64,000 nucleotides of DNA from a virus. Under the pieces are notes generated by a model that saw nothing but the letters and a program-made list of their open reading frames with translations, was not told the DNA's origin and did no database searches. Below are positions 1 to 40,794 of the stretch, piece after piece (the stretch's first letter is position 1; every line of letters starts with the position of its first letter). Position numbers and translations under genes: made by a program. The DNA lies in IMG/VR virus record IMGVR_UViG_3300036830_000392, positions 4,848 through 68,847 of that record, one strand, 5' to 3'.

Positions 1-441
1 GCGGCTTTCCCAGGTGGCGTCCTGAACGGCGGCCAGGTTGCGCACTGGGCTGGCATCGAGAAGGCCCAGACCGGCGCCGGCCATCAGCTCCTGGCCCTTC
101 GTCAGGTGCAGCCGCTGCACCAGCCGGGTGGCGCGGTCAACGGCGGCGTTTCCGTACTTGGCGATGCCGGCGTCGTCCTGCGACGGCCCGCGGAAGAACT
201 GGATGCTGACCACCGCCCGCTTGGGGCCGGTGACCCTTTCGGTACTGGTGTTGTCGAGGTTGTCGACGTTGTCTTCTGATGGCGTACCCACGTCGACGCA
301 GGAGATCACCTTCACGGTGGCGATCTCGATGCCCTGGCCGCCGGCCGGGATGATCTGATCGGCTGGGCGCACCGAGTTCGCCGGCATGCTCATCACGATC
401 CGCACCAGGCCGCGAACGACTTTGTTCAGGTCGTCGATCAC
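1..441 (-). CDS. Neck/tail terminator protein (runs off the window start)
   Basis: Not in the ORF track. GTG at 441 overlaps the upstream TGA, and the frame (MIDDLNKVVRGLVRIVMSMPANSVRPADQ...VSIQFFRG...) is open to position 1. Position follows the head-closure gene. Confidence 0.7.
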   Translation of the reverse strand, partial: MIDDLNKVVRGLVRIVMSMPANSVRPADQIIPAGGQGIEIATVKVISCVDVGTPSEDNVDNLDNTSTERVTGPKRAVVSIQFFRGPSQDDAGIAKYGNAAVDRATRLVQRLHLTKGQELMAGAGLGLLDASPVRNLAAVQDATWESR

Positions 442-1983: not shown

Positions 1984-1991
1984 GTCTCCAG
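1963..1991 (-). promoter_or_regulatory. Phage late-type promoter motif
   Basis: aaatCTGGAG-17-CATGCT. Confidence 0.65.
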
Positions 1992-2010
1992 ATTTCAGCG
2001 GGCGAGCTGC

Positions 2011-3051
2011 CTAGACCGCGTCCATGTAGTAGACGGTCGCCGGGCGGCGGATCTCCAGGCCGGCGTACCGGTACTCGCCCGGCACGTTAGTGGCCAGGTC
2101 GACCTCCTGCGGCGCCCGGAACATCAGCGGCATCGGCAGGTGCAGGACCATGTTGTCGTTCATCGGGTTGAAGAACACGACCCTCTTGGACGAGGAACCG
2201 CCCAGGATGGCCAGCTCGTCCGCGGACTGGATGTCCAGGCCGGGATAGATGCGCTTGATGAACTCCAGCACCGTGATGTCGCTGGCAGACGAGCGCGGGA
2301 TCAGCAGACGGCTGTACGACGAGATCGGCATAACGATCTTCGTCGGGAAATCGGTATCCTTGGTGGCGATCTTCACGTTGGTCAATCCGACCGTGATGTC
2401 GCTGATGATGGTGTCAGCCGTGGCCGCGTCCCACACCGCGCCGCTGGGGCGGTTGGCCGCCGTGACGGACGCGTTGTTGAACAGACCCGTGAAATTCGAG
2501 CCCGCTTCACCCTGGAGCGCGACGAAGTTCATGTGGCGCTGATACATCTCCATCGCGGTGAGCCGTCGGCCCTCGGGCAACGGGCGCTTGAAGAACGCCG
2601 ACGCGCGGAGGTCCTGGGTGGTGTACCCATACTTCACGCCGCCGTGAGCGATCGCGATGCTCTTCCGAGAGGAAGAGACGTCAGCCGTCGGCAGGTTGGT
2701 ACCCGCCGGCGAGACACGCTTTCCCATGCCGACCTGGTCGACGACCTCATACTCGACCGACTCTTTGCCGGGACCAGCCGCATAGCTGATCGTGTTGCCG
2801 ATGAGGTCGATGTACTTCTTCGGCGCATACTTGCGCGCGAAGAGGCCTTCTTCCTCGTAGGCCAACTGCGACACCGCGAAGGCGTGCGCCTCCTGAGCAT
2901 CGTTGGCGGAGGGCTTCCCGAAGTCGTCGCCCGCCCCGAAACCGAGGATGTGCGGGTGCGTCTTCAGGTAGTGGTCGAAGGCGTTGTAGCGATGATCGCT
3001 GACAGTCGCCTCCACCCACCTGTTCATCGCGTCTTTGGCTTTGATCTTCAT
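2011..3051 (-). CDS. Major capsid protein (DUF2184 / HK97 fold)
   Basis: 346 aa. YGYTTQDLRAS, TGLFNN and AGLEIRRPATVYYMD motifs. Follows the protease and decoration genes. Confidence 0.9.
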   Translation of the reverse strand: MKIKAKDAMNRWVEATVSDHRYNAFDHYLKTHPHILGFGAGDDFGKPSANDAQEAHAFAVSQLAYEEEGLFARKYAPKKYIDLIGNTISYAAGPGKESVEYEVVDQVGMGKRVSPAGTNLPTADVSSSRKSIAIAHGGVKYGYTTQDLRASAFFKRPLPEGRRLTAMEMYQRHMNFVALQGEAGSNFTGLFNNASVTAANRPSGAVWDAATADTIISDITVGLTNVKIATKDTDFPTKIVMPISSYSRLLIPRSSASDITVLEFIKRIYPGLDIQSADELAILGGSSSKRVVFFNPMNDNMVLHLPMPLMFRAPQEVDLATNVPGEYRYAGLEIRRPATVYYMDAV

Positions 3052-9556: not shown

Positions 9557-9585
9557 ATCGTCAGGTAACGCTTGGCGATCTCCAG
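9557..9585 (-). promoter_or_regulatory. Phage late-type promoter motif (terminase)
   Basis: caatCTGGAG-17-GACGAT-10-ATG. Confidence 0.7.
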
Positions 9586-9632
9586 ATTGGCGGGGTGCGA
9601 TCCAATCTTGGATCAGGCCGATGGAACCTGGA

Positions 9633-17707: not shown

Positions 17708-17982
17708 GGCCGGTCTCCCATTGCCTTCCGCGCCAGCGCGAGCGCCTTGCCGGCGATCTGCGTCGCCTCCAGGGCGAGCTTCTCGCAGCGCTCAGCGCGC
17801 CCATGCAGGTCGTGCACCTGGTTGATCAGGTCGAGGATCAGAACTTTCTGGGCCAGCACCACATCGACCATGCGCACCGGATCGGCGAGCAGCGCAACCG
17901 CCGCCTCGTCCACTTTGGTGGTGGGCTCGTCGTCCACCGGTGTCGGCACGCTAGTATCCTGATTCGTCTTCATCTGATTCAT
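17701..17982 (-). CDS. Hypothetical coiled-coil protein
   Basis: Continues the operon. Helical composition. Confidence 0.5.
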   Translation of the reverse strand: MNQMKTNQDTSVPTPVDDEPTTKVDEAAVALLADPVRMVDVVLAQKVLILDLINQVHDLHGRAERCEKLALEATQIAGKALALARKAMGDRPC

Positions 17983-19288
17983 CCACCACCCGCTTGTCCT
18001 CGGCGTCCTCATACAGATCGATGTCCTCGCCGATCAGCGCTTCCTTCAAAGACGCCAGGCCATCGATTTCAACCTGCCGCGCCCTCTCCATCGTGACGTT
18101 CATGAAGGTGCCCACGTCTTCCAATTGCGTCTGCCTCTCGCGGCGCTGCGCTCGATCGGCGACGTCCAGCGAGCATGTCTCTGGCATCGCGACGAGCGCA
18201 TCGACCACGTCCATGTGGGGGAAGTTGATCTTGATGCTGCGACCTTTCACGTCGAGGTAGAGGTGCTGTCGGCAGCCCACCCACGGGCAGGGCCTGGGTC
18301 CTTTGCGACAGTCGCCGCGCTGCAAAGGTCTGTCATCCCAGACCGGCAGGCGCATCAGCTCAACTTTCTCAGCCTTGTTCAGGCGCTTGGCCGCCGATGA
18401 TTTTGCCTTGGGGGCGCCGCGCTTCCGGCGACCGTAAAACCGCAGACGTTGCTGATCAGGCTCCTCGCATTGAGCCCGACGGCGGGGACGACGCTTGCGC
18501 CGATCAGTGTGCAGGTGAGGCAGGGCGCAATCGATCTCGCACAGCGCGATGGCTGGGACGGCTTCCGCGTCGGCGATGACGGCCTGAAACGGTCGCGGGC
18601 GAAACGGGGCAAGGAGACGATCGCGGCGCTTCACCCACGCGCGGCGCGTGCGCCACTGACGGCGCGCGATATGGGGGTTCTCGTCGTCACCGGGGATCGG
18701 CGGCTCAGCCATGCGGGCGAACCAAACGGCACGCTTTTTCTCGAGCCGACCCCGCGCCGTCGCTTCTCGCGGCTCCCATTTCGCATCGTGGCGCGCGGTC
18801 CAGCGCGTGCGCTCGGCCGCGCGGGCCGCGCGCAGCGCCTTCATCCGCTTGGTCCATTTGGCGGCCTGGCGAGCAAGCCACGCGGACTTCGCGGCCGCGG
18901 CGCCGGCCTTGTTCTTTCGGCGCCTACCTTTCGCCGCCCGTCGCCTTGCCCACTCCTCGCGTTCCCGCTGTCGCTTGGCGCGGAGACGTTCCTCCTTGGC
19001 GTTCCACTTCGCATCGTGGCGCGCGGTCCAGCGCGTGCGCTCGGCCGCGCGGGCCGCGGCTAGAACCAGGTCAGTCTCGGGTGGTGATTCCAGCCACGCC
19101 GCGCGATCGCGATCGTATTTCGCTCGCCTGGCCGCCTCCTGGAGGTCCCACCGGGCGGCCGCCTCGCTCTGCGAAAGATCGCCGTGGGTCTCAAGGATGG
19201 CGCCGGTCGGCAGGGCAAAGAACGTGGTGCCCCGATCGATCGGCGCGGGATGCACCAAGGTCTGGGCCGCTGGCGGCAGAAACTTCAC
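17951..19288 (-). CDS. Arg/Ala-rich protein with a C-terminal Cys-rich plus sigma70 region-4-like HTH (paralog B)
   Basis: RPLQRGDC..PRPCPWVGCRQHLYLDV...ETCSLDVAD...LEDVGTFMNVTMERARQVE. GTG at 19288 overlaps the upstream TGA. Confidence 0.75.
   Translation of the reverse strand: MKFLPPAAQTLVHPAPIDRGTTFFALPTGAILETHGDLSQSEAAARWDLQEAARRAKYDRDRAAWLESPPETDLVLAAARAAERTRWTARHDAKWNAKEERLRAKRQREREEWARRRAAKGRRRKNKAGAAAAKSAWLARQAAKWTKRMKALRAARAAERTRWTARHDAKWEPREATARGRLEKKRAVWFARMAEPPIPGDDENPHIARRQWRTRRAWVKRRDRLLAPFRPRPFQAVIADAEAVPAIALCEIDCALPHLHTDRRKRRPRRRAQCEEPDQQRLRFYGRRKRGAPKAKSSAAKRLNKAEKVELMRLPVWDDRPLQRGDCRKGPRPCPWVGCRQHLYLDVKGRSIKINFPHMDVVDALVAMPETCSLDVADRAQRRERQTQLEDVGTFMNVTMERARQVEIDGLASLKEALIGEDIDLYEDAEDKRVVDESDEDESGY
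18780..19058. repeat. Perfect 51-bp direct repeat (18780-18830 and 19008-19058)
   Basis: ttcgcatcgtggcgcgcggtccagcgcgtgcgctcggccgcgcgggccgcg occurs twice, within the duplicated peptide AARAAERTRWTARHDAKW. Confidence 0.9.
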
Positions 19289-19746
19289 TTGCGCGCGACC
19301 TCCGGCGGCGACTGGGCCATGCCTGCCGCGCGAAGTACCTCGCGCGCGTACCGGGAATTTCGGCAGCGCCCGCCGTTGTATCGGGAGAGGCCGGCGCGCA
19401 CGTCGCCGCCGCACGCGCAAATCATCTTGGCGAGGTAGGCGCAGCCGAGGTGGATGTTGCGGCGAGGGTGCATCAGGGCGGCGTCAGAGAGGTAGACGCC
19501 AGACGGGATGGCACCGCCGCGAAGCAACTGCATCAGGCCCAGCTCACCGCGCTTGCCGATGGCCGTCTGATTGAACTGGCTTTCGCGTGCGATGATCGCC
19601 GCTACGATGAAGGGGTCGACGCCCGCCCGCGCCGACTCTTCGACGACGACTACCGCGAGCAGCCGCGCGCGGACCGCAGGCGCGCCGGTGGCGTCGGGGT
19701 GGCCCGAGAGACGGAGGATTGCGGCGGCCAGGGCGAGGGTGGTCAT
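19285..19746 (-). CDS. Lytic transglycosylase (SLT domain)
   Basis: AIIARESQF, GLMQL, NIHLGCAYL and SRYNGG motifs. Confidence 0.9.
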   Translation of the reverse strand: MTTLALAAAILRLSGHPDATGAPAVRARLLAVVVVEESARAGVDPFIVAAIIARESQFNQTAIGKRGELGLMQLLRGGAIPSGVYLSDAALMHPRRNIHLGCAYLAKMICACGGDVRAGLSRYNGGRCRNSRYAREVLRAAGMAQSPPEVARK

Positions 19747-29613: not shown

Positions 29614-30708
29614 TCATCCCTCATTGTTTTTCGCTCGACGGGTACTAAATTCCCGCGCCGCTCGGGCGGGTGGTCGTCGCGGGCCCGCCGCGATCGCCTC
29701 GTCGTTCTTCGCCTTCATGAGATCGAGATCCGTCTCGTCGACGTGCATGTAGCGGCTGGCCTGGCTGAGGGTCACGTGGCCAGACGCACGCATCACCACC
29801 ACCATCGGGTTCCCATTCTGAATCGAGCGCGTGATGTGCGTGTGGCGGGTGTCGTGATAGTGGACGTTCCCGTCTCCCTCGGCAGCTTCGAGTTTCGCAT
29901 CTGCGCAGGCGCTGCGGAACAGATCCCAAAAGTACGTCTTGCCGAACGGCAGCCCGGTGTCCGAATTGGCAAAAACGTACTGGCTGAAGACCGAGCGCGG
30001 CAGTTCGTCGATGGCGTCGAGGGCGCGTTCGCTGAGCCGGGCAGATCGACTGCGCTTTGTCTTGGCGACGGTCCATGAGATCCGCACCCGACCGCTGTCC
30101 TCGATCTGCGACCACTTCAGATTGCGGACCTCGCTCTTACGCATGCCGCTGTCGATCGCGATCAGGATGAACGCGCGTAGCAAGACGTTCGAAAACGACA
30201 GCAGCTTCTCCAGCCCCTCGTCGCCGATCACCGTCTCGCGAGCCGGCCGCCCACGTTCTTTCTTCACCCGAGCGAGAGGGTTCGCGTCGATCAGTTCCTG
30301 ATCGACTGCCCAGTTCAGCATCGTCTTGAAGCGGACCAATTCCATGTTGCGGGTCGTGACGCTGGGGGCGGCGCCCAGGCGCGTGATCCGCTTGCGGCAG
30401 ATCTGGTCCCGGTAGAACGCCCAGTCGGAACGGCGCATCTCGGTGACTTCCCGGTCGGCGAAGTGCTTCAGCGCCCATTTCATCAGGTCACGGACAGACG
30501 TGGCCCACGTCTCAGCCTCGAACGTCGGGTAGTAGAGCGCCCAGAGCCGGGATACCAAGAGGGGCTGCCTCGGCCGGGTTGGAATCGCCGCTGTGGCCCC
30601 CTGCGGCCCCATCCGTCCCACCATCTCGGTGAGCACCCGATTCTGCTCAGTCAGGGCGGCAATCTGCGCTTGAAACCCAAGCAGCAGTTGTTTTACGTCT
30701 TCGTCCAT
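29614..30708 (-). CDS. Tyrosine recombinase / integrase
   Basis: SGMRKSE (R), KTK (K), HDTRH (HxxR), GH and RY catalytic residues. Confidence 0.93.
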   Translation of the reverse strand: MDEDVKQLLLGFQAQIAALTEQNRVLTEMVGRMGPQGATAAIPTRPRQPLLVSRLWALYYPTFEAETWATSVRDLMKWALKHFADREVTEMRRSDWAFYRDQICRKRITRLGAAPSVTTRNMELVRFKTMLNWAVDQELIDANPLARVKKERGRPARETVIGDEGLEKLLSFSNVLLRAFILIAIDSGMRKSEVRNLKWSQIEDSGRVRISWTVAKTKRSRSARLSERALDAIDELPRSVFSQYVFANSDTGLPFGKTYFWDLFRSACADAKLEAAEGDGNVHYHDTRHTHITRSIQNGNPMVVVMRASGHVTLSQASRYMHVDETDLDLMKAKNDEAIAAGPRRPPARAAREFSTRRAKNNEG

Positions 30709-30896
30709 ACAGTCGGGCGTGTGAGTGTCCCGCAGGACAAAAGCACTTGGAACAGTCTGGAATTTCGGACAGTGGCGTAACTTATTGTCCTTCGCGCACT
30801 GTCATTTTCGACACCGTCACGAACCTGACGACGGCATCCTGGAGCGGCCACTTGGGGGCGAAAGAGCACCGCGGCGAAGGAGTGAAACCGGTTTCA

Positions 30897-31151
30897 TCAC
30901 CGCAACTTGTTTCGGGCGCCGCTGCGCGTCCGAGTTTTCGCGGCGCTCTTCTTCGGCCTCATCCGCATGCGGGCGCCGCGCTCGGTGATCCCGTCCCAGT
31001 GCCATGCATGGCCGTGTTGATCGACGAGAACGGCGTTCAGGACCGTTGGAGCCTTACCGGTGCCCTTGTATCGCGGATCGGACACTGCGACGACGGCGAC
31101 GGCGACGAACTTAATGGTCCGCTGCGGGTGGGCGACGGGGGCGATCGGCAT
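30897..31151 (-). CDS. Hypothetical protein
   Basis: Own sigma70-like promoter TTGACC-16-TACCAT. Confidence 0.5.
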   Translation of the reverse strand: MPIAPVAHPQRTIKFVAVAVVAVSDPRYKGTGKAPTVLNAVLVDQHGHAWHWDGITERGARMRMRPKKSAAKTRTRSGARNKLR

Positions 31152-31188
31152 GTTCCCTACATGGTACAGATGTGGGGAACACGGTCAA
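31151..31188 (-). promoter_or_regulatory. sigma70-like promoter overlapped by a 31-bp imperfect palindrome
   Basis: TTGACC(31188-31183)-16-TACCAT. Palindrome tgttccctacat-N7-atgtggggaaca. Confidence 0.55.
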
Positions 31189-31203
31189 CCTACATCTGGC
31201 GAC

Positions 31204-31575
31204 CTACGGCCTGTCGCGCCAGACGCGCCGGGGCACACCGTAGGCCGCGAGGGTGCGGCGCCATTCGGCGCGGGCCGGGCGGAAGTGATCGCCGCCGGCC
31301 CAAGCCTTCTTGATCTGGTCCGGCGAGGTCTTGCAGATGCTGGCGGCCGACGCGACTGTCAGACCGGCCATGAGGATGGCTTTGTGCGCGGGGTCCGGGT
31401 TGTCGCCCAGCTTGGTCAGCGCGATCCGCAGCGCCCGAATGTCGATCCCCGCGCTCGCCTCCGCCGCCGCCGCCGCCAATACCGCCGCGTCTGCCTTTTG
31501 GCGCAGACGTCGGGCGAGGCGCAGCGCCTTGGGATCCACGCCGGCACGGTAACGCCGGGGATCCAGCACCGCCAA
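31204..31575 (-). CDS. Hypothetical protein
   Basis: Follows the zinc-knuckle gene after 3 nt. Confidence 0.55.
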
Positions 31576-31578
31576 TTT

Positions 31579-32982
31579 TTACAGGGCGACGGCGCCGCCC
31601 AGCGGGGAGTCGCGGTGCTCGGGCGGGTCTTCAACGTCGAGCGCGGCGGCCGACTCCTTCGCGCCCACCAGGCCACGCACCTCGATTTGGCGGATGCGCT
31701 CGCGGGTCAGGTTCAGCGTCTGTGCGACAGCCTCCAACGTGATCCCCCCGCGGTCGGCCACGTCCAGGGTGCAGCTTTCGCGCATCTGCCCGACCTCTGC
31801 GTAATTGAATTTGATCGCCCCGCTGTTCTCGTCGACGTCGAGGAATAGGTTGTGGCGACAGCTGATGAACGGGCACGGGCGGATGCCGTTATTCTGGCAG
31901 TCGCCTCTGGTGCGCGGGCGAGCTGGCAGATCGCCAGGCTCCTCGTCGGGCTGGATGACACGCAGCGCCCGGCGGATCTCGCGGCGCATCTTGGCCGGGC
32001 TCTCGGTGAAGGGGCGGAAATCGCCATCAAACGCCGATTTATGCGATTCCTCGACGTCGTTATGCGCCTCGGCCTCTATAAAATCCACGGGAGGCTCGTC
32101 GGCAACCAAGTCGGTCAGATCCGCCTCTTCGTCGCGGTCGACGAACACGGGCGGCGGCAGCGCCCGACGGTGGGACAGTTCGCCGGGGGCACGCTTCGGC
32201 TCACCGCCGAGCTGCGGGCACGTCTGGCGGCGGTGGCCGGGCTTGCGGCAGACCGAGCAGCAGCGCTGGCCAGGCGCGGCCTTCTCGTTTTCGGCCCTCA
32301 CTTGAGGCGGCAAAACGGGAACGGCTGGCGGCGCCGGAGCCGCCAGGCATGCGTCGTAGACGTCTTCCGGCGCGCCGGCGTCCGCCACCACCGGCGCCGC
32401 CACCAGGTCGACCAGTTCCGTCTCCACCGGCCGCAGCGGGCAGGTTTCCCGGCGGTGCCCAGGCTCGCGGCAGATGCCGCACCGGATCTGCGCCGGGCGC
32501 TTCGGCTTGATCGCCGGCGGTGGGACCCCGGGCCGGTCGGCCTTGAACTTGGCGCAGGTGACGATCTGATGGCCGGGTTCCTTGCACCACCCGCAGTGGC
32601 GGCCGCCCGGCGCCGGCTTCTCTGGACACTCTGGCATCCGATGGCCGAGGCGGCGGCAGCGCCGGCAGAGATCGGCGCGGGCGCGCATCGACGCTTCGCC
32701 GGGGTCGACGTCCGTCGGGCGAGCCGGACAGAGCCGCGCCACGTGACCGACCTCGCGGCACCATGCGCAGCGCTTCGGCTGGCGCTCGACCTCAGGACAG
32801 TTGCGCCGATCGTGGCCGGCGACACCGCAGCCGGTGCACGCGCGCGGGCTCGGCGGCAGCTCGACACGAAGGACTTCTGGATCCTCCGCGATCGTCGCTC
32901 CGGCCGACAGCCATGGGAACTTCTTGCGGAGCCATTCGATGCGACGGCTATCTGACGCAGGCGCGGCGCCATCGGCGGACAT
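31579..32982 (-). CDS. Six CCHC zinc knuckles fused to a Cys-rich plus sigma70 region-4-like HTH (paralog A)
   Basis: Six CX2CX4HX4C units. C-terminus [24 protein letters not shown]...[33 protein letters not shown]. Confidence 0.85.
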
Positions 32983-32990
32983 CGATCGGC

Positions 32991-33019
32991 ACCCTACGCG
33001 CGAGGGGAGCGGACTCCAG
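32991..33019 (-). promoter_or_regulatory. Phage late-type promoter motif upstream of the zinc-knuckle/sigma4 gene
   Basis: gaatCTGGAG-17-TAGGGT-8-ATG. Confidence 0.7.
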
Positions 33020-33037
33020 ATTCAGACGCCGGCAAGA

Positions 33038-33301
33038 TCAGGGCGGGGATTCAATTCCATCGATCAGAATGTAAAGCCCCGTCGGAATCGGCCCTCGTCG
33101 CGGAATCGGTGGCACGGCCCCGTGGACTACTTTGACATCCCGAGTCCCGAGTCGTTCGGCGATGGCATCCAGATTTTCAAGAGAGATGTGGTCGACGTTC
33201 TTCGAAAGACAAACGTACATTCGTCCGTGATCGGATCGCGTGAAATGATGGATCGCTGAATCCGGAAGAACCTCCCGCACGCCTCGCTCGGCTTCGCTCA
33301 T
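33038..33301 (-). CDS. Hypothetical protein
   Basis: MSEAERGV start with ATGA overlap. Confidence 0.5.
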   Translation of the reverse strand: MSEAERGVREVLPDSAIHHFTRSDHGRMYVCLSKNVDHISLENLDAIAERLGTRDVKVVHGAVPPIPRRGPIPTGLYILIDGIESPP

Positions 33302-33712
33302 CGCTTCGGCTTCCCTGGCCCGCCCAGGTCGAAGTCCATCGCGAGCCCGTCCGGGCCGGGCGCGTAGTGGCCGAAGGCGCGCTCTTGTGTGCCGAGCCTT
33401 GGATCGTCGATCGGGAACTCGTCGCTGTCGGCGATCAGGCGTCCCCTCACCATCGGTAGGCAGTCGACGATCTCGACCGTCCCCAACACCGCGCCGACCG
33501 GCAGATCGGCCGGCGTGTTGAATCCGAGGCGCGCGAGGGGCGCTGGCGAAAGGCTGGGTGAAACAAAGGTGCCGTTCGTCGATGTTCATCTTCGCGCTGG
33601 CGTGCACCGCGAGCGGGCCGCGGTGGGGCGTCGACCAGCTGCGCGTCTCGATGATCTTGGCGCCGGCGACGAAAAGGGAGGCCCATGGCTGGCGGAGCGT
33701 GATGCATTTCAT
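33298..33712 (-). pseudogene. Frameshifted ASCH-domain gene
   Basis: LRQPWASL..GAKIIETRSW...GPLAVHAS in one frame and LPVGAVLGTVEIVDC...ERAFGHY in another. One extra base in the GGGG run at 33537-33540. Confidence 0.7.
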
Positions 33713-33981
33713 GGCTGCCGCTCCCAGTTGGAAAGTTCATCGACATCGACACGGTGATCGTAGTGGCTCCTCGATCCGAACTCCCGCAGCCAAACATCGC
33801 CCAGTCGCGACGCACCCGAGCAGAAGAATCGCCGCCCGCGCCAGGTCACGATCGGCATGTGCGACTCCAGCCATCGGTGGTCCTTGTCGAGCGCCGGCCG
33901 CCTGGCGTGTTCCAGGAATTCCTTCGCGATCGGGTCGGCGCGTTCGCTGTCCAGGTAGTCGTCGACGTGGGTCATGCGCAC
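33709..33981 (-). CDS. Hypothetical phage protein
   Basis: THVDDYL...GASRLGDVWL...RVDVDELSNW. Confidence 0.65.
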   Translation of the reverse strand: MRMTHVDDYLDSERADPIAKEFLEHARRPALDKDHRWLESHMPIVTWRGRRFFCSGASRLGDVWLREFGSRSHYDHRVDVDELSNWERQP

Positions 33982-40029: not shown

Positions 40030-40794
40030 TCAGACCTTCCCTTCCAGCTGAGGGAAGCGCTTGATCAGGTCCTTGGCCGGCGAGAGGCCGAGCACCCAAT
40101 CGAGCACGAGCCAGCCATCGCCGGGGCCGATCGCGTCCCGCGCTGCCTCCAGCTTCTTCGCGCCCGGCCGGACCAGTGTCGTGCGGGCCTTGCGCGCCTT
40201 CGGCGGGGCGTCCGGGTCCAGCTTCAGCAGCCGCGAGATCGAAGACAGCGGGACGCCGAGGTCCTCGGCGATTTCTTCGTGCGAGACCCCTAGCGCGTCG
40301 AGGCGTTGGGCATTGAAGGCGTTCTCCTGGGGCGTGACGGCCCGCCGGTGAGCGTTCTCGGCGCCCATCACCTTGCGCACCTTGGCGGCGCCGCCGGCGG
40401 GCGCGAGCGGGCGCACCGTCAGCCGGATGCCTTTGGCGCCGACCAGCTCGATGATGCGCTTGCCGAGGTCGCTGTTCCGGTGCCGATCGATTGCGTCGAC
40501 GACCGGGGCGATCTTCCCCTTGTACAGGTGGGCGCCGACCAGGTGGTCGATGACCGTCGCCGCCTTCCAGCGCTGTTTGCCGAAGACCACGATCGGTGTC
40601 CCGTTCCGATCCTGGGCCTTGAGGTCCTGCAGCACGCCGTGGGTGGCGATCGAAAGCAAGAACGAGTCGGCGATCAGGTCGTGGATGCTCCGGTCGTAGA
40701 GCGGATCCTTCGGGTCGGTGATGACGGTCAGTTCGTGCGCGTGCGCGGCGAAGGCGACGGTGCGCTGCAGGTCGAGTGCTTGGGTGCCGGCCAT
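40030..40794 (-). CDS. ParB-like protein with an HTH
   Basis: SIATHGVLQ, VFGKQRWKA, ENAHR and GVSHEEIAEDLG motifs. Confidence 0.7.
   Translation of the reverse strand: MAGTQALDLQRTVAFAAHAHELTVITDPKDPLYDRSIHDLIADSFLLSIATHGVLQDLKAQDRNGTPIVVFGKQRWKAATVIDHLVGAHLYKGKIAPVVDAIDRHRNSDLGKRIIELVGAKGIRLTVRPLAPAGGAAKVRKVMGAENAHRRAVTPQENAFNAQRLDALGVSHEEIAEDLGVPLSSISRLLKLDPDAPPKARKARTTLVRPGAKKLEAARDAIGPGDGWLVLDWVLGLSPAKDLIKRFPQLEGKV

Follow-up and report, generated by a model that had tools for sequence, protein, structure and literature searches.

Six CCHC zinc knuckles fused to an AsgB-like, sigma region 4.2-type module in a protein of a temperate myxobacterial phage

The window, meaning the whole stretch of 64,000 nt of viral DNA analysed here, encodes on its minus strand a protein of 467 aa (P0001) in which a zinc-knuckle array typical of retroviruses and eukaryotes is fused, in a phage, to a bacterial helix of the promoter-reading type. 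P0001 is most likely a phage transcription regulator. The original prediction, made from the letters of the DNA and its translated reading frames, had proposed six knuckles, an acidic linker, a four-cysteine domain and a helix-turn-helix (HTH), and all four were confirmed; the interpretation put forward with them is partly supported. A single ORF (GC3 0.83) occupies the locus, its first available start being the ATG at 32982, after an in-frame TGA; a CTGGAG at 33014-33019, upstream of the gene, accounts for the end coordinate of 33019 given in that prediction. The domain composition was established as follows.

31579..32982, minus strand: whole gene for P0001, 467 aa, comprising a conserved N-terminal 45 aa, six knuckles, acidic linker, Cys4+HTH module and C-terminal tail
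32218..32838, minus strand: six CX2CX4HX4C zinc knuckles, from a pattern count with shuffles, zf-CCHC and PF27939
32047..32142, minus strand: acidic linker with EADLTDL (residue 286), from motif counts and alignment
31669..31917, minus strand: AsgB-like module, residues 356-438, from invariant columns, 52% identity to a Polyangium aurulentum protein and an AF2 model
31681..31740, minus strand: sigma region-4.2-type HTH, residues 415-434, with recognition helix TRERIRQIE, from Pfam, a PDB profile search and alignment to 1tty
31582..31629, minus strand: C-terminal tail with the phage-type motif PE[RH]xxSPLGxA, from alignment and motif counts

The phage context is established from the complete 68.8-kb record (68,847 nt), which is that of a temperate phage of myxobacteria whose host probably belongs to Polyangia. 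Its phage genes include an integrase (29614-30708), portal, large terminase, major head protein, protease, DnaB-like helicase and methyltransferases. The completeness of the record was estimated by CheckV at 73%; its first and last 161 nt are, however, equal except for one mismatch, and this terminal repeat argues that the record is nearly whole. In the window, scans for Rfam families and tRNAs gave no match.

The knuckles lie at residues 49-62, 72-85, 106-119, 130-143, 168-181 and 242-255 (minus-strand coordinates 32797-32838, 32728-32769, 32626-32667, 32554-32595, 32440-32481 and 32218-32259, respectively). All six have the exact pattern and the sequences predicted, whereas 20,000 shuffles of P0001 gave a mean of 0.0014 CX2CX4HX4C units and a maximum of one. 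The Pfam model zf-CCHC (PF00098) matches at 23.7 bits (cut-off 20.8), the precomputed PF27939, named DUF8363 in the Atlas, falls on the array, and a six-frame zf-CCHC search of the whole record returned three matches, one of them above the cut-off. Arrays of CCHC knuckles are characteristic of retroviruses, of retrotransposons and of RNA-binding proteins in eukaryotes, and in retroviral nucleocapsid and CNBP-like proteins the CX2CX4HX4C spacing binds single-stranded nucleic acid. Such knuckles are rare in prokaryotes, as had been supposed of this spacing in bacteria: zf-CCHC exceeds its cut-off in four of 101 Myxococcota genomes and in none of 14 control genomes.

Between the array and the module, the acidic linker spans about residues 281-312, and a sequence similar to its EADLTDL, ETELVDL, follows knuckle 5. 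The EADLTDL motif was counted in 11 of 66 long relatives, in one of 52 IMG/VR copies and in none of 80 cellular copies. The tail motif likewise marks long forms (15/66, vs 1/80 for cellular copies), and residues S459, P460 and L461 within it are unchanged in all five aligned sequences.

The C-terminal module combines a four-cysteine segment with the HTH. Cysteines C362, C370, C375 and C404, which bear out the four-Cys domain proposed earlier, are invariant in 56 of 56 aligned relatives and in 45 of 45 sequences of a second alignment, in which R427, E428, R429, R431 and Q432 are also unchanged (45/45). Sigma70_r4 matches residues 413-438 at 27.2 bits (cut-off 24.1), which upholds the region 4.2-like HTH of the original prediction within a limited span, profile positions 20-45 of 50. 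The match corresponds to the HTH of region 4.2; region 4.1 has no match, and the Cys-rich segment stands in its place. In a residue-by-residue alignment, a 10-residue stretch of the recognition helix is identical to that of the primary sigma region 4 of 1tty, every PDB chain matched by a profile of the 56 relatives is a sigma region 4 (best E 1.9e-11), and the HTH is closest to region 4.2 of group-1 and group-2 sigma factors. Sigma region 2 is absent, as had been stated from the sequence, both from P0001 in Pfam and, at E ≤ 1 for Sigma70_r2, from the 68,847-nt record; all NCBIfam sigma models fall far under their cut-offs against P0001 (best 23.9 bits vs 800). The AF2 model of the module is of moderate quality (mean pLDDT 76.4, pTM 0.49). 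With that model, Foldseek against the PDB and a BFVD search of viral folds each gave no match at E ≤ 0.001, and the best VIA-align wide hit (Z 3.8) covered the HTH part only; the Cys-rich part before the HTH has no solved or viral fold detectable in these structure searches.

The last 100 or so residues of P0001 are homologous to a small, mostly single-copy cellular protein of Myxococcota, named by NCBI "sigma factor-like helix-turn-helix DNA-binding protein". Homology is established by 52% identity over 112 aa between residues 332-438 and WP_136918845.1 of Polyangium aurulentum (BLASTP 2e-32), and by two alignments in which P0001 has the family core RPCP..SC.HHL..DV....G.IK.N......SC.LDVA, followed by TRER.RQ.E, and the four cysteines. 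A search of a genome collection yielded at least 597 relatives (597 of the 600 matched stretches listed), and the labels of the best 80 of these at least 597 matches are all myxobacterial or less specific (delta-/Proteobacteria, Pseudomonadota, bacterium). The module was matched in 76 of 121 Myxococcota genomes, exactly once in 70 of them. Among genomes at least 98% complete it was found in 165 of 195, with two or three matches in 22, so that the resemblance to a small conserved myxobacterial protein, which the original prediction had named, was right. One Myxococcota class has the module in all 37 genomes, and 30 of the 195 near-complete genomes are without it; the matches in genomes that lack the module were to sigma factors only. 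Named members come from Polyangium, Sorangium, Pendulispora, Kofleriaceae, Haliangiales, Sandaracinaceae, Persicimonas, Microvenator and Lujinxingia, with no Myxococcus member among the 28 translated proteins looked up by name. The cellular proteins measure about 140-260 aa and end in a sigma-A-like tail (e.g. ...LRDYVDE, ...LQDFLSF), and none of the best 80 among the matches listed has knuckles. Their genes have housekeeping neighbours (purH, purD, TldD/PmbA, DksA). An identification of the cellular homologs as TerS genes beside a large terminase was rejected, the conserved neighbours being the genes just named and a murein peptidase.

One Atlas cluster has been given, automatically, the label "DNA-binding protein AsgB family". 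The passages on AsgB in PMC3986340 and PMC4320627 describe a DNA-binding protein of 163 aa whose C-terminal part is like sigma-70 region 4 and whose mutants mis-express many genes. That description, of about 163 aa with a C-terminal sigma-4-like HTH, agrees with the cellular family, and the two are matched here by description. The cellular family is thus probably the AsgB family, on the strength of the automatic label and the published descriptions, with MXAN_2913 compared by description only. P0001 itself, which is 467 aa long, encoded by a phage and joined to a knuckle array, is a phage derivative of this family and not an ortholog. A tree of the module built on 203 rows and 91 columns lacked the resolution to tell donor from recipient.

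A survey of the domain architecture showed the fusion of knuckle array and module to be extremely rare: at E ≤ 1e-30, P0001 matched five of 1.84 billion representatives, and four of these, the query included, have several knuckles. PHROGs held no family for P0001, tblastn against 50,697 deposited phage records gave no match, and no relative turned up in IMG/VR when the N-terminal half of the protein was used as query. The module is joined in phages to many different N-terminal parts; knuckles, repeats of an ECF-type HTH, entire sigma factors and another copy of the module itself all occur as partners. Recurring "GFRW" units in some relatives were considered as AP2-like domains, a proposal that was dropped, as Pfam finds no family there. 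Three relatives (P0003, P0005 and P0015) contain a complete sigma factor: they combine Sigma70_r2 (48.5, 48.2 and 34.4 bits, respectively; cut-off 24), a full region 4 and the module in one polypeptide, and P0003 aligns with P0001 on either side of its sigma insert. These proteins, with sigma regions 2 to 4 alongside the module, are consistent with docking of the P0001 module on core RNAP or a host sigma, at the beta flap or in the place of sigma-A region 4, where it would act as a surrogate of region 4 and steer the polymerase to phage promoters, for example those bearing AATCTGGAG; the knuckles would then hold the non-template strand or nascent RNA, and P0001 would be a sigma-less remnant or a partner of the sigma-containing relatives. 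The kinship of the HTH with group-1 and group-2 sigma factors agrees with such docking, as does the lack of Sigma70_r2 from the record, from which it follows that the phage must use a host sigma, and the acidic DLTDL and SPLG tail of the long phage-type forms, missing from the cellular protein, could be docking peptides. However, region 4.1, which in sigma factors helps to hold the flap-tip helix of RNAP, is the part without a match, and at 73% completeness a sigma gene could lie outside the record, although the terminal repeat argues against much being missing. Such an RNAP-bound surrogate seems unlikely.

Upstream of the P0001 gene lies a 9-nt motif that it has in common with genes of the head-and-packaging region; its copies are these.

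33014..33022, minus strand: AATCTGGAG, 31 nt before the P0001 ATG and conserved upstream of the ortholog in the syntenic relative L196
5880..5888, plus strand: AATCTGGAG, 31 nt before the ATG (5920) of the portal gene
9580..9588, minus strand: AATCTGGAG, 21 nt ahead of the ATG (9558) of an ORF of 260 aa that lies immediately upstream of the gene for the large terminase
1986..1994, minus strand: AATCTGGAG, in the gap separating the major head protein gene (2011-3051) from the following ORF of the head region (start 1917)

The upstream motif that the original prediction took for a promoter proved real as a sequence motif in this form: the exact 9-mer has four matches against 0.30 expected, a count reached in none of 100 shuffles, and it is also conserved upstream of the P0001 ortholog in the only syntenic relative. 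Each copy precedes an ORF, and three are in the head-and-packaging region, where the 260-aa ORF has no PHROGs family. Longer and shorter versions were less informative, as the 12-mer CTGAATCTGGAG with up to two mismatches was not clearly enriched (eight matches vs 4.56 expected; 5 of 100 shuffles reach eight) and the 8-mer TCTGGAGT showed no enrichment. Because the same motif stands upstream of all four, the P0001 gene is probably co-regulated with the portal gene and the two other head-and-packaging ORFs. AATCTGGAG is unlike TTGACA, and autoregulation is therefore not indicated. The presence of the motif before the portal gene, the ORF preceding the large terminase and the head-region ORF would also fit a nucleocapsid-like virion protein, made late with the head genes, which would bind the phage genome through its knuckles and HTH, be packaged and reach the next cell together with the DNA, ready to act there at once. 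Knuckles of the retroviral nucleocapsid/CNBP type accord with that role. However, P0001 belongs to no PHROG structural family and its gene sits far away from the structural genes, in a region given to replication and lysogeny; a virion function appears very improbable.

Relative to the integrase, the P0001 gene sits three ORFs upstream, and the order of knuckle-module gene, small conserved ORF and integrase is kept in L196, the sole syntenic relative, whose 86-aa ORF is 65% identical to the 84-aa ORF of the window. Across 30600-33800 a single sigma-70-like promoter was matched (TTGACC, 16 nt, TACCAT at 31188-31161, minus strand), just before the 84-aa ORF. With the conserved order and a -35-like hexamer nearby, P0001 might be a DNA-binding accessory of the CII, Cox or Xis type that sets the expression or directionality of the 84-aa ORF and the integrase. 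This order, however, has been seen in one syntenic relative only, none of the ORFs called in L196 corresponds to the intervening 123-aa ORF, and AATCTGGAG links P0001 to head-and-packaging genes and not to the integrase, so that control of lysogeny or excision is a doubtful explanation.

The preferred explanation, which as a whole we regard as evenly balanced between right and wrong, is that P0001, a phage copy of the AsgB-like module with added knuckles, is a modular regulator that would bind nucleic acid and re-programme transcription, its binding, targets and timing being putative. The four-cysteine metal site would hold the HTH, whose recognition helix TRERIRQIE is as in primary sigma region 4.2, and the module could bind duplex DNA at -35-like (TTGACA-like) hexamers. 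There it may occupy, or compete for, the sites of the host AsgB-like factor or of sigma-A region 4, and in this way could re-programme how host or phage genes are transcribed. The six knuckles may add affinity for single-stranded nucleic acid, be it the melted DNA of a promoter, nascent RNA or ssDNA of the phage, a role proposed by analogy with the same fold in eukaryotes and retroviruses. A bolder version, which we consider improbable, is a split, phage-made promoter-recognition device, in which the module would replace sigma-A region 4 on RNAP or sit beside it on the DNA, the knuckles would hold on to the melted non-template strand or to the first RNA nucleotides, and the host enzyme would be switched to the head-and-packaging promoters marked by AATCTGGAG; the sigma-containing relatives would be the unsplit form.

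The module of P0001 is a copy of a small protein that is single-copy beside housekeeping genes in most Polyangia and related myxobacteria, and the variety of its partners in phages suggests that phages imitate or hijack a global regulator of the host. The phage fusions are natural variants for dissecting how the module works. The original prediction had passed over the temperate nature of the phage, the module's counterpart among host housekeeping genes with its varied phage fusions, and the complete sigma factor in three relatives. To our knowledge, the mechanism of the AsgB-like protein has never been worked out, what is known of AsgB coming from genetics alone, which marks it as regulating early development and phase variation. 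If the split device were real, it would be the first use of CCHC knuckles in transcription initiation in a bacterium or phage, and it would give a handle on the function of the widespread myxobacterial AsgB-like protein.

Compared with known systems, the knuckles of P0001 are like those of retroviral nucleocapsid and CNBP proteins in their exact CX2CX4HX4C pattern and in the G-H dipeptide present in all six units. The nearest Atlas clusters by features are also multi-knuckle proteins, at scores of at most 0.87 that serve as a lead only. Unlike the retroviral and CNBP knuckles, only two of the six units (W74, W132) have an aromatic residue between the first two cysteines, the spacers between units are long and proline-rich, and the protein is phage-encoded and joined to a bacterial HTH. 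The HTH is like that of region 4.2 in primary and group-2 sigma factors: the recognition helix is identical, and Sigma70_r4 matches over its cut-off; unlike sigma factors, P0001 is without regions 1.2 to 3, region 2 included, and has a four-Cys segment where region 4.1 would be expected. WhiB-like proteins and T4 AsiA/MotA, small four-Cys or sigma-region-4-directed factors that change promoter choice, offer an analogy, no relation in sequence or fold to P0001 having been found; those factors bind sigma region 4, whereas P0001 itself has a region 4.2-like HTH. A further comparison is with AsgB (MXAN_2913) and the cellular family, with which P0001 has in common a C-terminal part resembling sigma-70 region 4, as the passages on AsgB in PMC3986340 and PMC4320627 describe it. 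P0001 keeps the four cysteines and the recognition helix of that family, and differs from it in having knuckles and a phage-type SPLG tail where the cellular copies have a sigma-A-like one.

The target ORF (window 31579-32982, minus strand) encodes a protein of 467 aa with a GC3 of 0.83, in which the following features were located.

Residues 49, 72, 106, 130, 168 and 242 of the target: six exact CX2CX4HX4C units, by pattern match
Window 32047-32142, within the target: segment with the acidic motif
Window 31582-31629, within the target: C-terminal tail motif

The six zinc knuckles of the original prediction were recovered exactly, compared with a mean of 0.0014 and a maximum of one unit in 20,000 shuffles of the protein's own residues, and the Pfam model zf-CCHC scored above its curated cut-off (23.7 vs 20.8 bits). 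Sigma70_r4 also passed its curated cut-off (27.2 vs 24.1 bits), with an alignment that spans only positions 20-45 of the 50 in the profile; these make up the region 4.2 helix-turn-helix (HTH), at residues 413-438, and an HTH of this kind had been read from the sequence. Sigma region 2, expected to be missing, was found by Pfam neither in the target nor anywhere in the 68,847-nt record; every NCBIfam sigma model scored far under its cut-off on the target, and no PHROGs family matched it. The Pfam, shuffle and region 2 results therefore make the earlier description of the target accurate; that observation is confirmed, and its interpretation is partly supported.

A word-indexed search yielded 66 long relatives including the target (256-818 aa), whose similarity is confined to the last ~100 residues, hereafter the module. 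Four cysteines (C362, C370, C375, and C404, target numbering) are invariant in 56 aligned relatives, together with R368-P369, L406-D407, A409, and R429 and Q432 of the HTH; the module's invariant columns were seen again in a second alignment of 45 rows. In the PDB, the profile of the 56 relatives had no matches other than sigma region 4 chains (best E 1.9e-11), and in a 24-residue alignment the recognition helix of the target is identical to that of 1tty_A, which we take to be region 4 of Thermotoga maritima sigma-A. The helix-equivalent residues R584, E585, R588, and Q589 of E. coli sigma-70 contact the -35 element in structures of region 4 with -35 DNA. An AF2 model of the module was of moderate confidence (mean pLDDT 76.4), and for its Cys-rich half nothing comparable was detected among solved structures or predicted structures of viral proteins.

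At least 597 stretches in the genome collection (597 of the 600 matches listed) encode relatives of the module. The best 80 of these all came from MAGs, labelled Myxococcales, Myxococcota, Polyangia, Nannocystaceae, Labilithrix, Haliangium, or more broadly (delta-/Proteobacteria, Pseudomonadota, bacterium), with small ORFs of 150-388 aa, an overestimate counted from the first possible start, and with zinc knuckles in none of the 80 loci. Recurrent neighbours, surveyed in the 64 of 80 loci where a simple gene caller recovered the module gene, were a co-directional ORF of ~199 aa, purH, TldD/PmbA, purD, DksA, and a murein peptidase. At E<=1e-20 the module was matched in 76 of 121 sampled Myxococcota genomes, exactly once in 70 of them; at E<=1e-15 it was matched in 165 of 195 genomes with a completeness of 98% or more (two or three times in 22), in keeping with the proposed likeness to a small protein conserved in myxobacteria. 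All 37 genomes of one class carried it, and it was absent from 30 of the 195; eleven module-less genomes, re-searched with all candidates scored (up to 150 per genome), gave sigma factors only. Many module-less genomes, which include G299-G308, G186, G226, G010, G017, and G035, are numbered side by side, which suggests a whole lineage without the module. Source names for the cellular family are “sigma factor-like helix-turn-helix DNA-binding protein” or “DNA-binding protein”, and its named members belong to Polyangium, Sorangium, Pendulispora, Kofleriaceae, Haliangiales, Sandaracinaceae, Persicimonas, Microvenator, and Lujinxingia, the Polyangium aurulentum member being 52% identical to the target over 112 residues. 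The cellular proteins (e.g., those of loci L084, L103, and L305) run on past the HTH with a tail that by eye resembles the extreme C-terminus of sigma-A (...ALRDYVDE and ...LGLQDFLSF, vs ...QLKSFIDN of an rpoD fragment in locus L291). On that resemblance, the cellular family has the appearance of a primary sigma's final ~60 residues with a Cys4 domain attached. The module of the target is homologous to this host gene and is read as a copy of it. The reading we put first, with about even confidence, is that the target regulates transcription for the phage and has a copy of a host AsgB-like factor at its core: through the helix identical to sigma region 4.2, the module would bind to -35-like hexamers in duplex DNA, in competition with the host factor or sigma-A, and the knuckles would contribute affinity for single-stranded nucleic acid.

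Several long relatives are linked to transcription by their own composition. P0003, a knuckle-bearing relative, aligns with the target in two blocks, one running from the N-terminus up to and including knuckle 5, the other from the acidic DLTDL motif onward to the end, and the insert between the aligned blocks is a complete sigma factor. In P0003, P0005 (also knuckle-bearing), and P0015, Sigma70_r2, r3, and a full-length region 4 (Pfam: r2, r4) stand beside the AsgB-like module in one polypeptide, giving two region-4-type HTHs per protein, and ECF-type region-4 repeats occur in other relatives. These relatives with sigma parts point to a probable role in transcription, within which the target could instead stand in for sigma region 4 on RNAP and redirect the enzyme; with an HTH that aligns to only part of the region 4 profile, we consider this unlikely, though the first of the alternatives. 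The acidic motif [DE]xDL[TS][DE]L was found in 11 of 66 long forms vs 0 of 80 cellular ones, and the tail ...PE[RH]xxSPLGxA in 15 of 66 vs 1 of 80; both may be docking or degradation signals.

The fusion itself proved rare. At least one exact knuckle occurs in 14 of the 66 long relatives, at least one loose CCH[CH] unit in 19, and five or more knuckles in P0001-P0004 only, the target being P0001; among IMG/VR module ORFs, knuckles were present in 3 of 52 (parsed by pattern from 80 loci, 28 of which were left out). An exhaustive phmmer search of 1.84 billion representatives with the whole target returned 6603 proteins at E<=0.001, of which 4028 reached E<=1e-10 and only five E<=1e-30, which bears out a rare architecture: the target, P0002 (its ortholog in L196, a syntenic metagenome locus), P0003, P0399 (a further multi-knuckle form), and P0400 (267 aa, with two AsgB-like Cys4-HTH modules in tandem). 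The anticipated scarcity of such knuckles in bacteria also held, with zf-CCHC above its cut-off in 4 of 101 Myxococcota genomes vs 0 of 14 control genomes. One Myxococcota MAG (G011) has four strong zf-CCHC matches on very short contigs (C424, C476, C662, and C761), three stored as loci of 697-2103 nt and the fourth lying 134-184 nt into its contig; these contigs may have entered the bin as eukaryotic or retroelement contaminants. The module tree (203 rows, 91 columns) was poorly resolved; in it, knuckle-bearing rows were scattered, and cellular rows were clustered without forming one clade (14 changes vs 67 with shuffled labels). The open-access literature searched yielded no paper dealing with a fusion of this type, with AsgB copies in phages, or with the cellular family; the two domain types are known and their combination is previously undescribed there, and the cellular parent of the module is itself barely understood.

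The window belongs to an IMG/VR virus record of 68,847 nt, the first and last 161 nt of which differ at a single position (127). Such ends suggest that the genome is almost whole and either terminally redundant or assembled as a circle; in IMG/VR it is listed as linear, and its CheckV completeness is 73%. It encodes virion proteins (portal, large terminase, head protease, major head protein, and baseplate wedge protein), a DnaB-like helicase, methyltransferases, a YqaJ-type recombinase, and a tyrosine integrase, and because of these virion, replication, and integrase genes it is a temperate phage. Its host is inferred to be a myxobacterium, since the closest of the module relatives listed are myxobacterial or less specifically labelled and the G+C content is 65%. 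The target sits within a long minus-strand gene run in the order DUF5131, ASCH, small ORF, target, 123-aa ORF, 84-aa ORF, and integrase. This position bears on a second alternative, that the target controls lysogeny or excision through the adjacent small ORF and integrase, which we find still less probable and which is partly a special case of the phage-transcription-regulator reading. The ASCH gene (window 33298-33712, minus strand) is apparently frameshift-split, its N-terminal half in the frame of ORF 33038-33712 (Pfam ASCH, residues 4-39; phrog_3193) and its C-terminal half in ORF 33298-33489 (67% identical to its ASCH-like match in L196); the gene may be truly broken, or the sequence may contain an error. 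Between 30600 and 33800 a single sigma-70-like promoter was matched (TTGACC, 16 nt, TACCAT; window 31161-31188, minus strand), directly before the conserved 84-aa ORF ahead of the integrase, and no terminator-like sites were found in that region. Two further, sub-threshold Sigma70_r4 or r4_2 matches occur at window 18041-18145 and 40222-40287 (both minus strand), in ORFs 17951-19420 (489 aa) and 40030-40794 (254 aa), neither with a Pfam family.

The late-type promoter motif CTGGAG proposed upstream of the target is part of AATCTGGAG, copies of which lie as follows.

31 nt ahead of the target ATG
31 nt ahead of the portal ATG
21 nt ahead of the ATG of an ORF of 260 aa that lies just upstream of the gene for the large terminase
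In the gap separating the major head gene from the head-region ORF that follows

The four copies in the window compare with 0.30 expected (four were reached in 0 of 100 shuffles), and all four are intergenic and on the same strand as the next ORF. In L196, the only syntenic relative (DUF5131, ASCH, ..., P0002, 86-aa ORF, integrase, ..., methyltransferase), AATCTGGAG is conserved, along with the CCGCYCC that comes after it, 29 nt upstream of the P0002 ATG, despite only 50% identity between P0002 and the target; this copy is the only one in 571 kb of related metagenome loci. Because it is enriched, intergenic before ORFs, and kept in L196, the motif stands up as a real regulatory signal that the target shares with head-and-packaging genes and a putative promoter element, which fits no sigma-70 consensus and, by reading, no sigma-54 consensus. 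Company of this kind could also suit a late, virion-associated nucleocapsid-like protein, an account that we think very improbable, and a phage transcription regulator remains our preferred reading.

The name AsgB entered through the ESM Atlas, where one of the three nearest clusters is automatically named “DNA-binding protein AsgB family protein”; no Myxococcus member was among the named cellular-family proteins found. AsgB was reportedly proposed by Plamann and colleagues in 1994 to bind -35-like sequences. The AsgB label, based on the automatic cluster name and on descriptions and not on alignment with MXAN_2913 (AsgB of Myxococcus xanthus), is a well-founded lead. AsgB is described as a DNA-binding protein of 163 aa whose C-terminal part is like sigma-70 region 4 (PMC3986340, PMC4320627). 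Its mutants mis-express many genes, some more than 1000-fold (PMC3986340), and it is also described as a likely transcription factor, apparently essential for growth (PMC4320627, PMC2129111, and a 2026 preprint). The published description of AsgB fits the cellular family.
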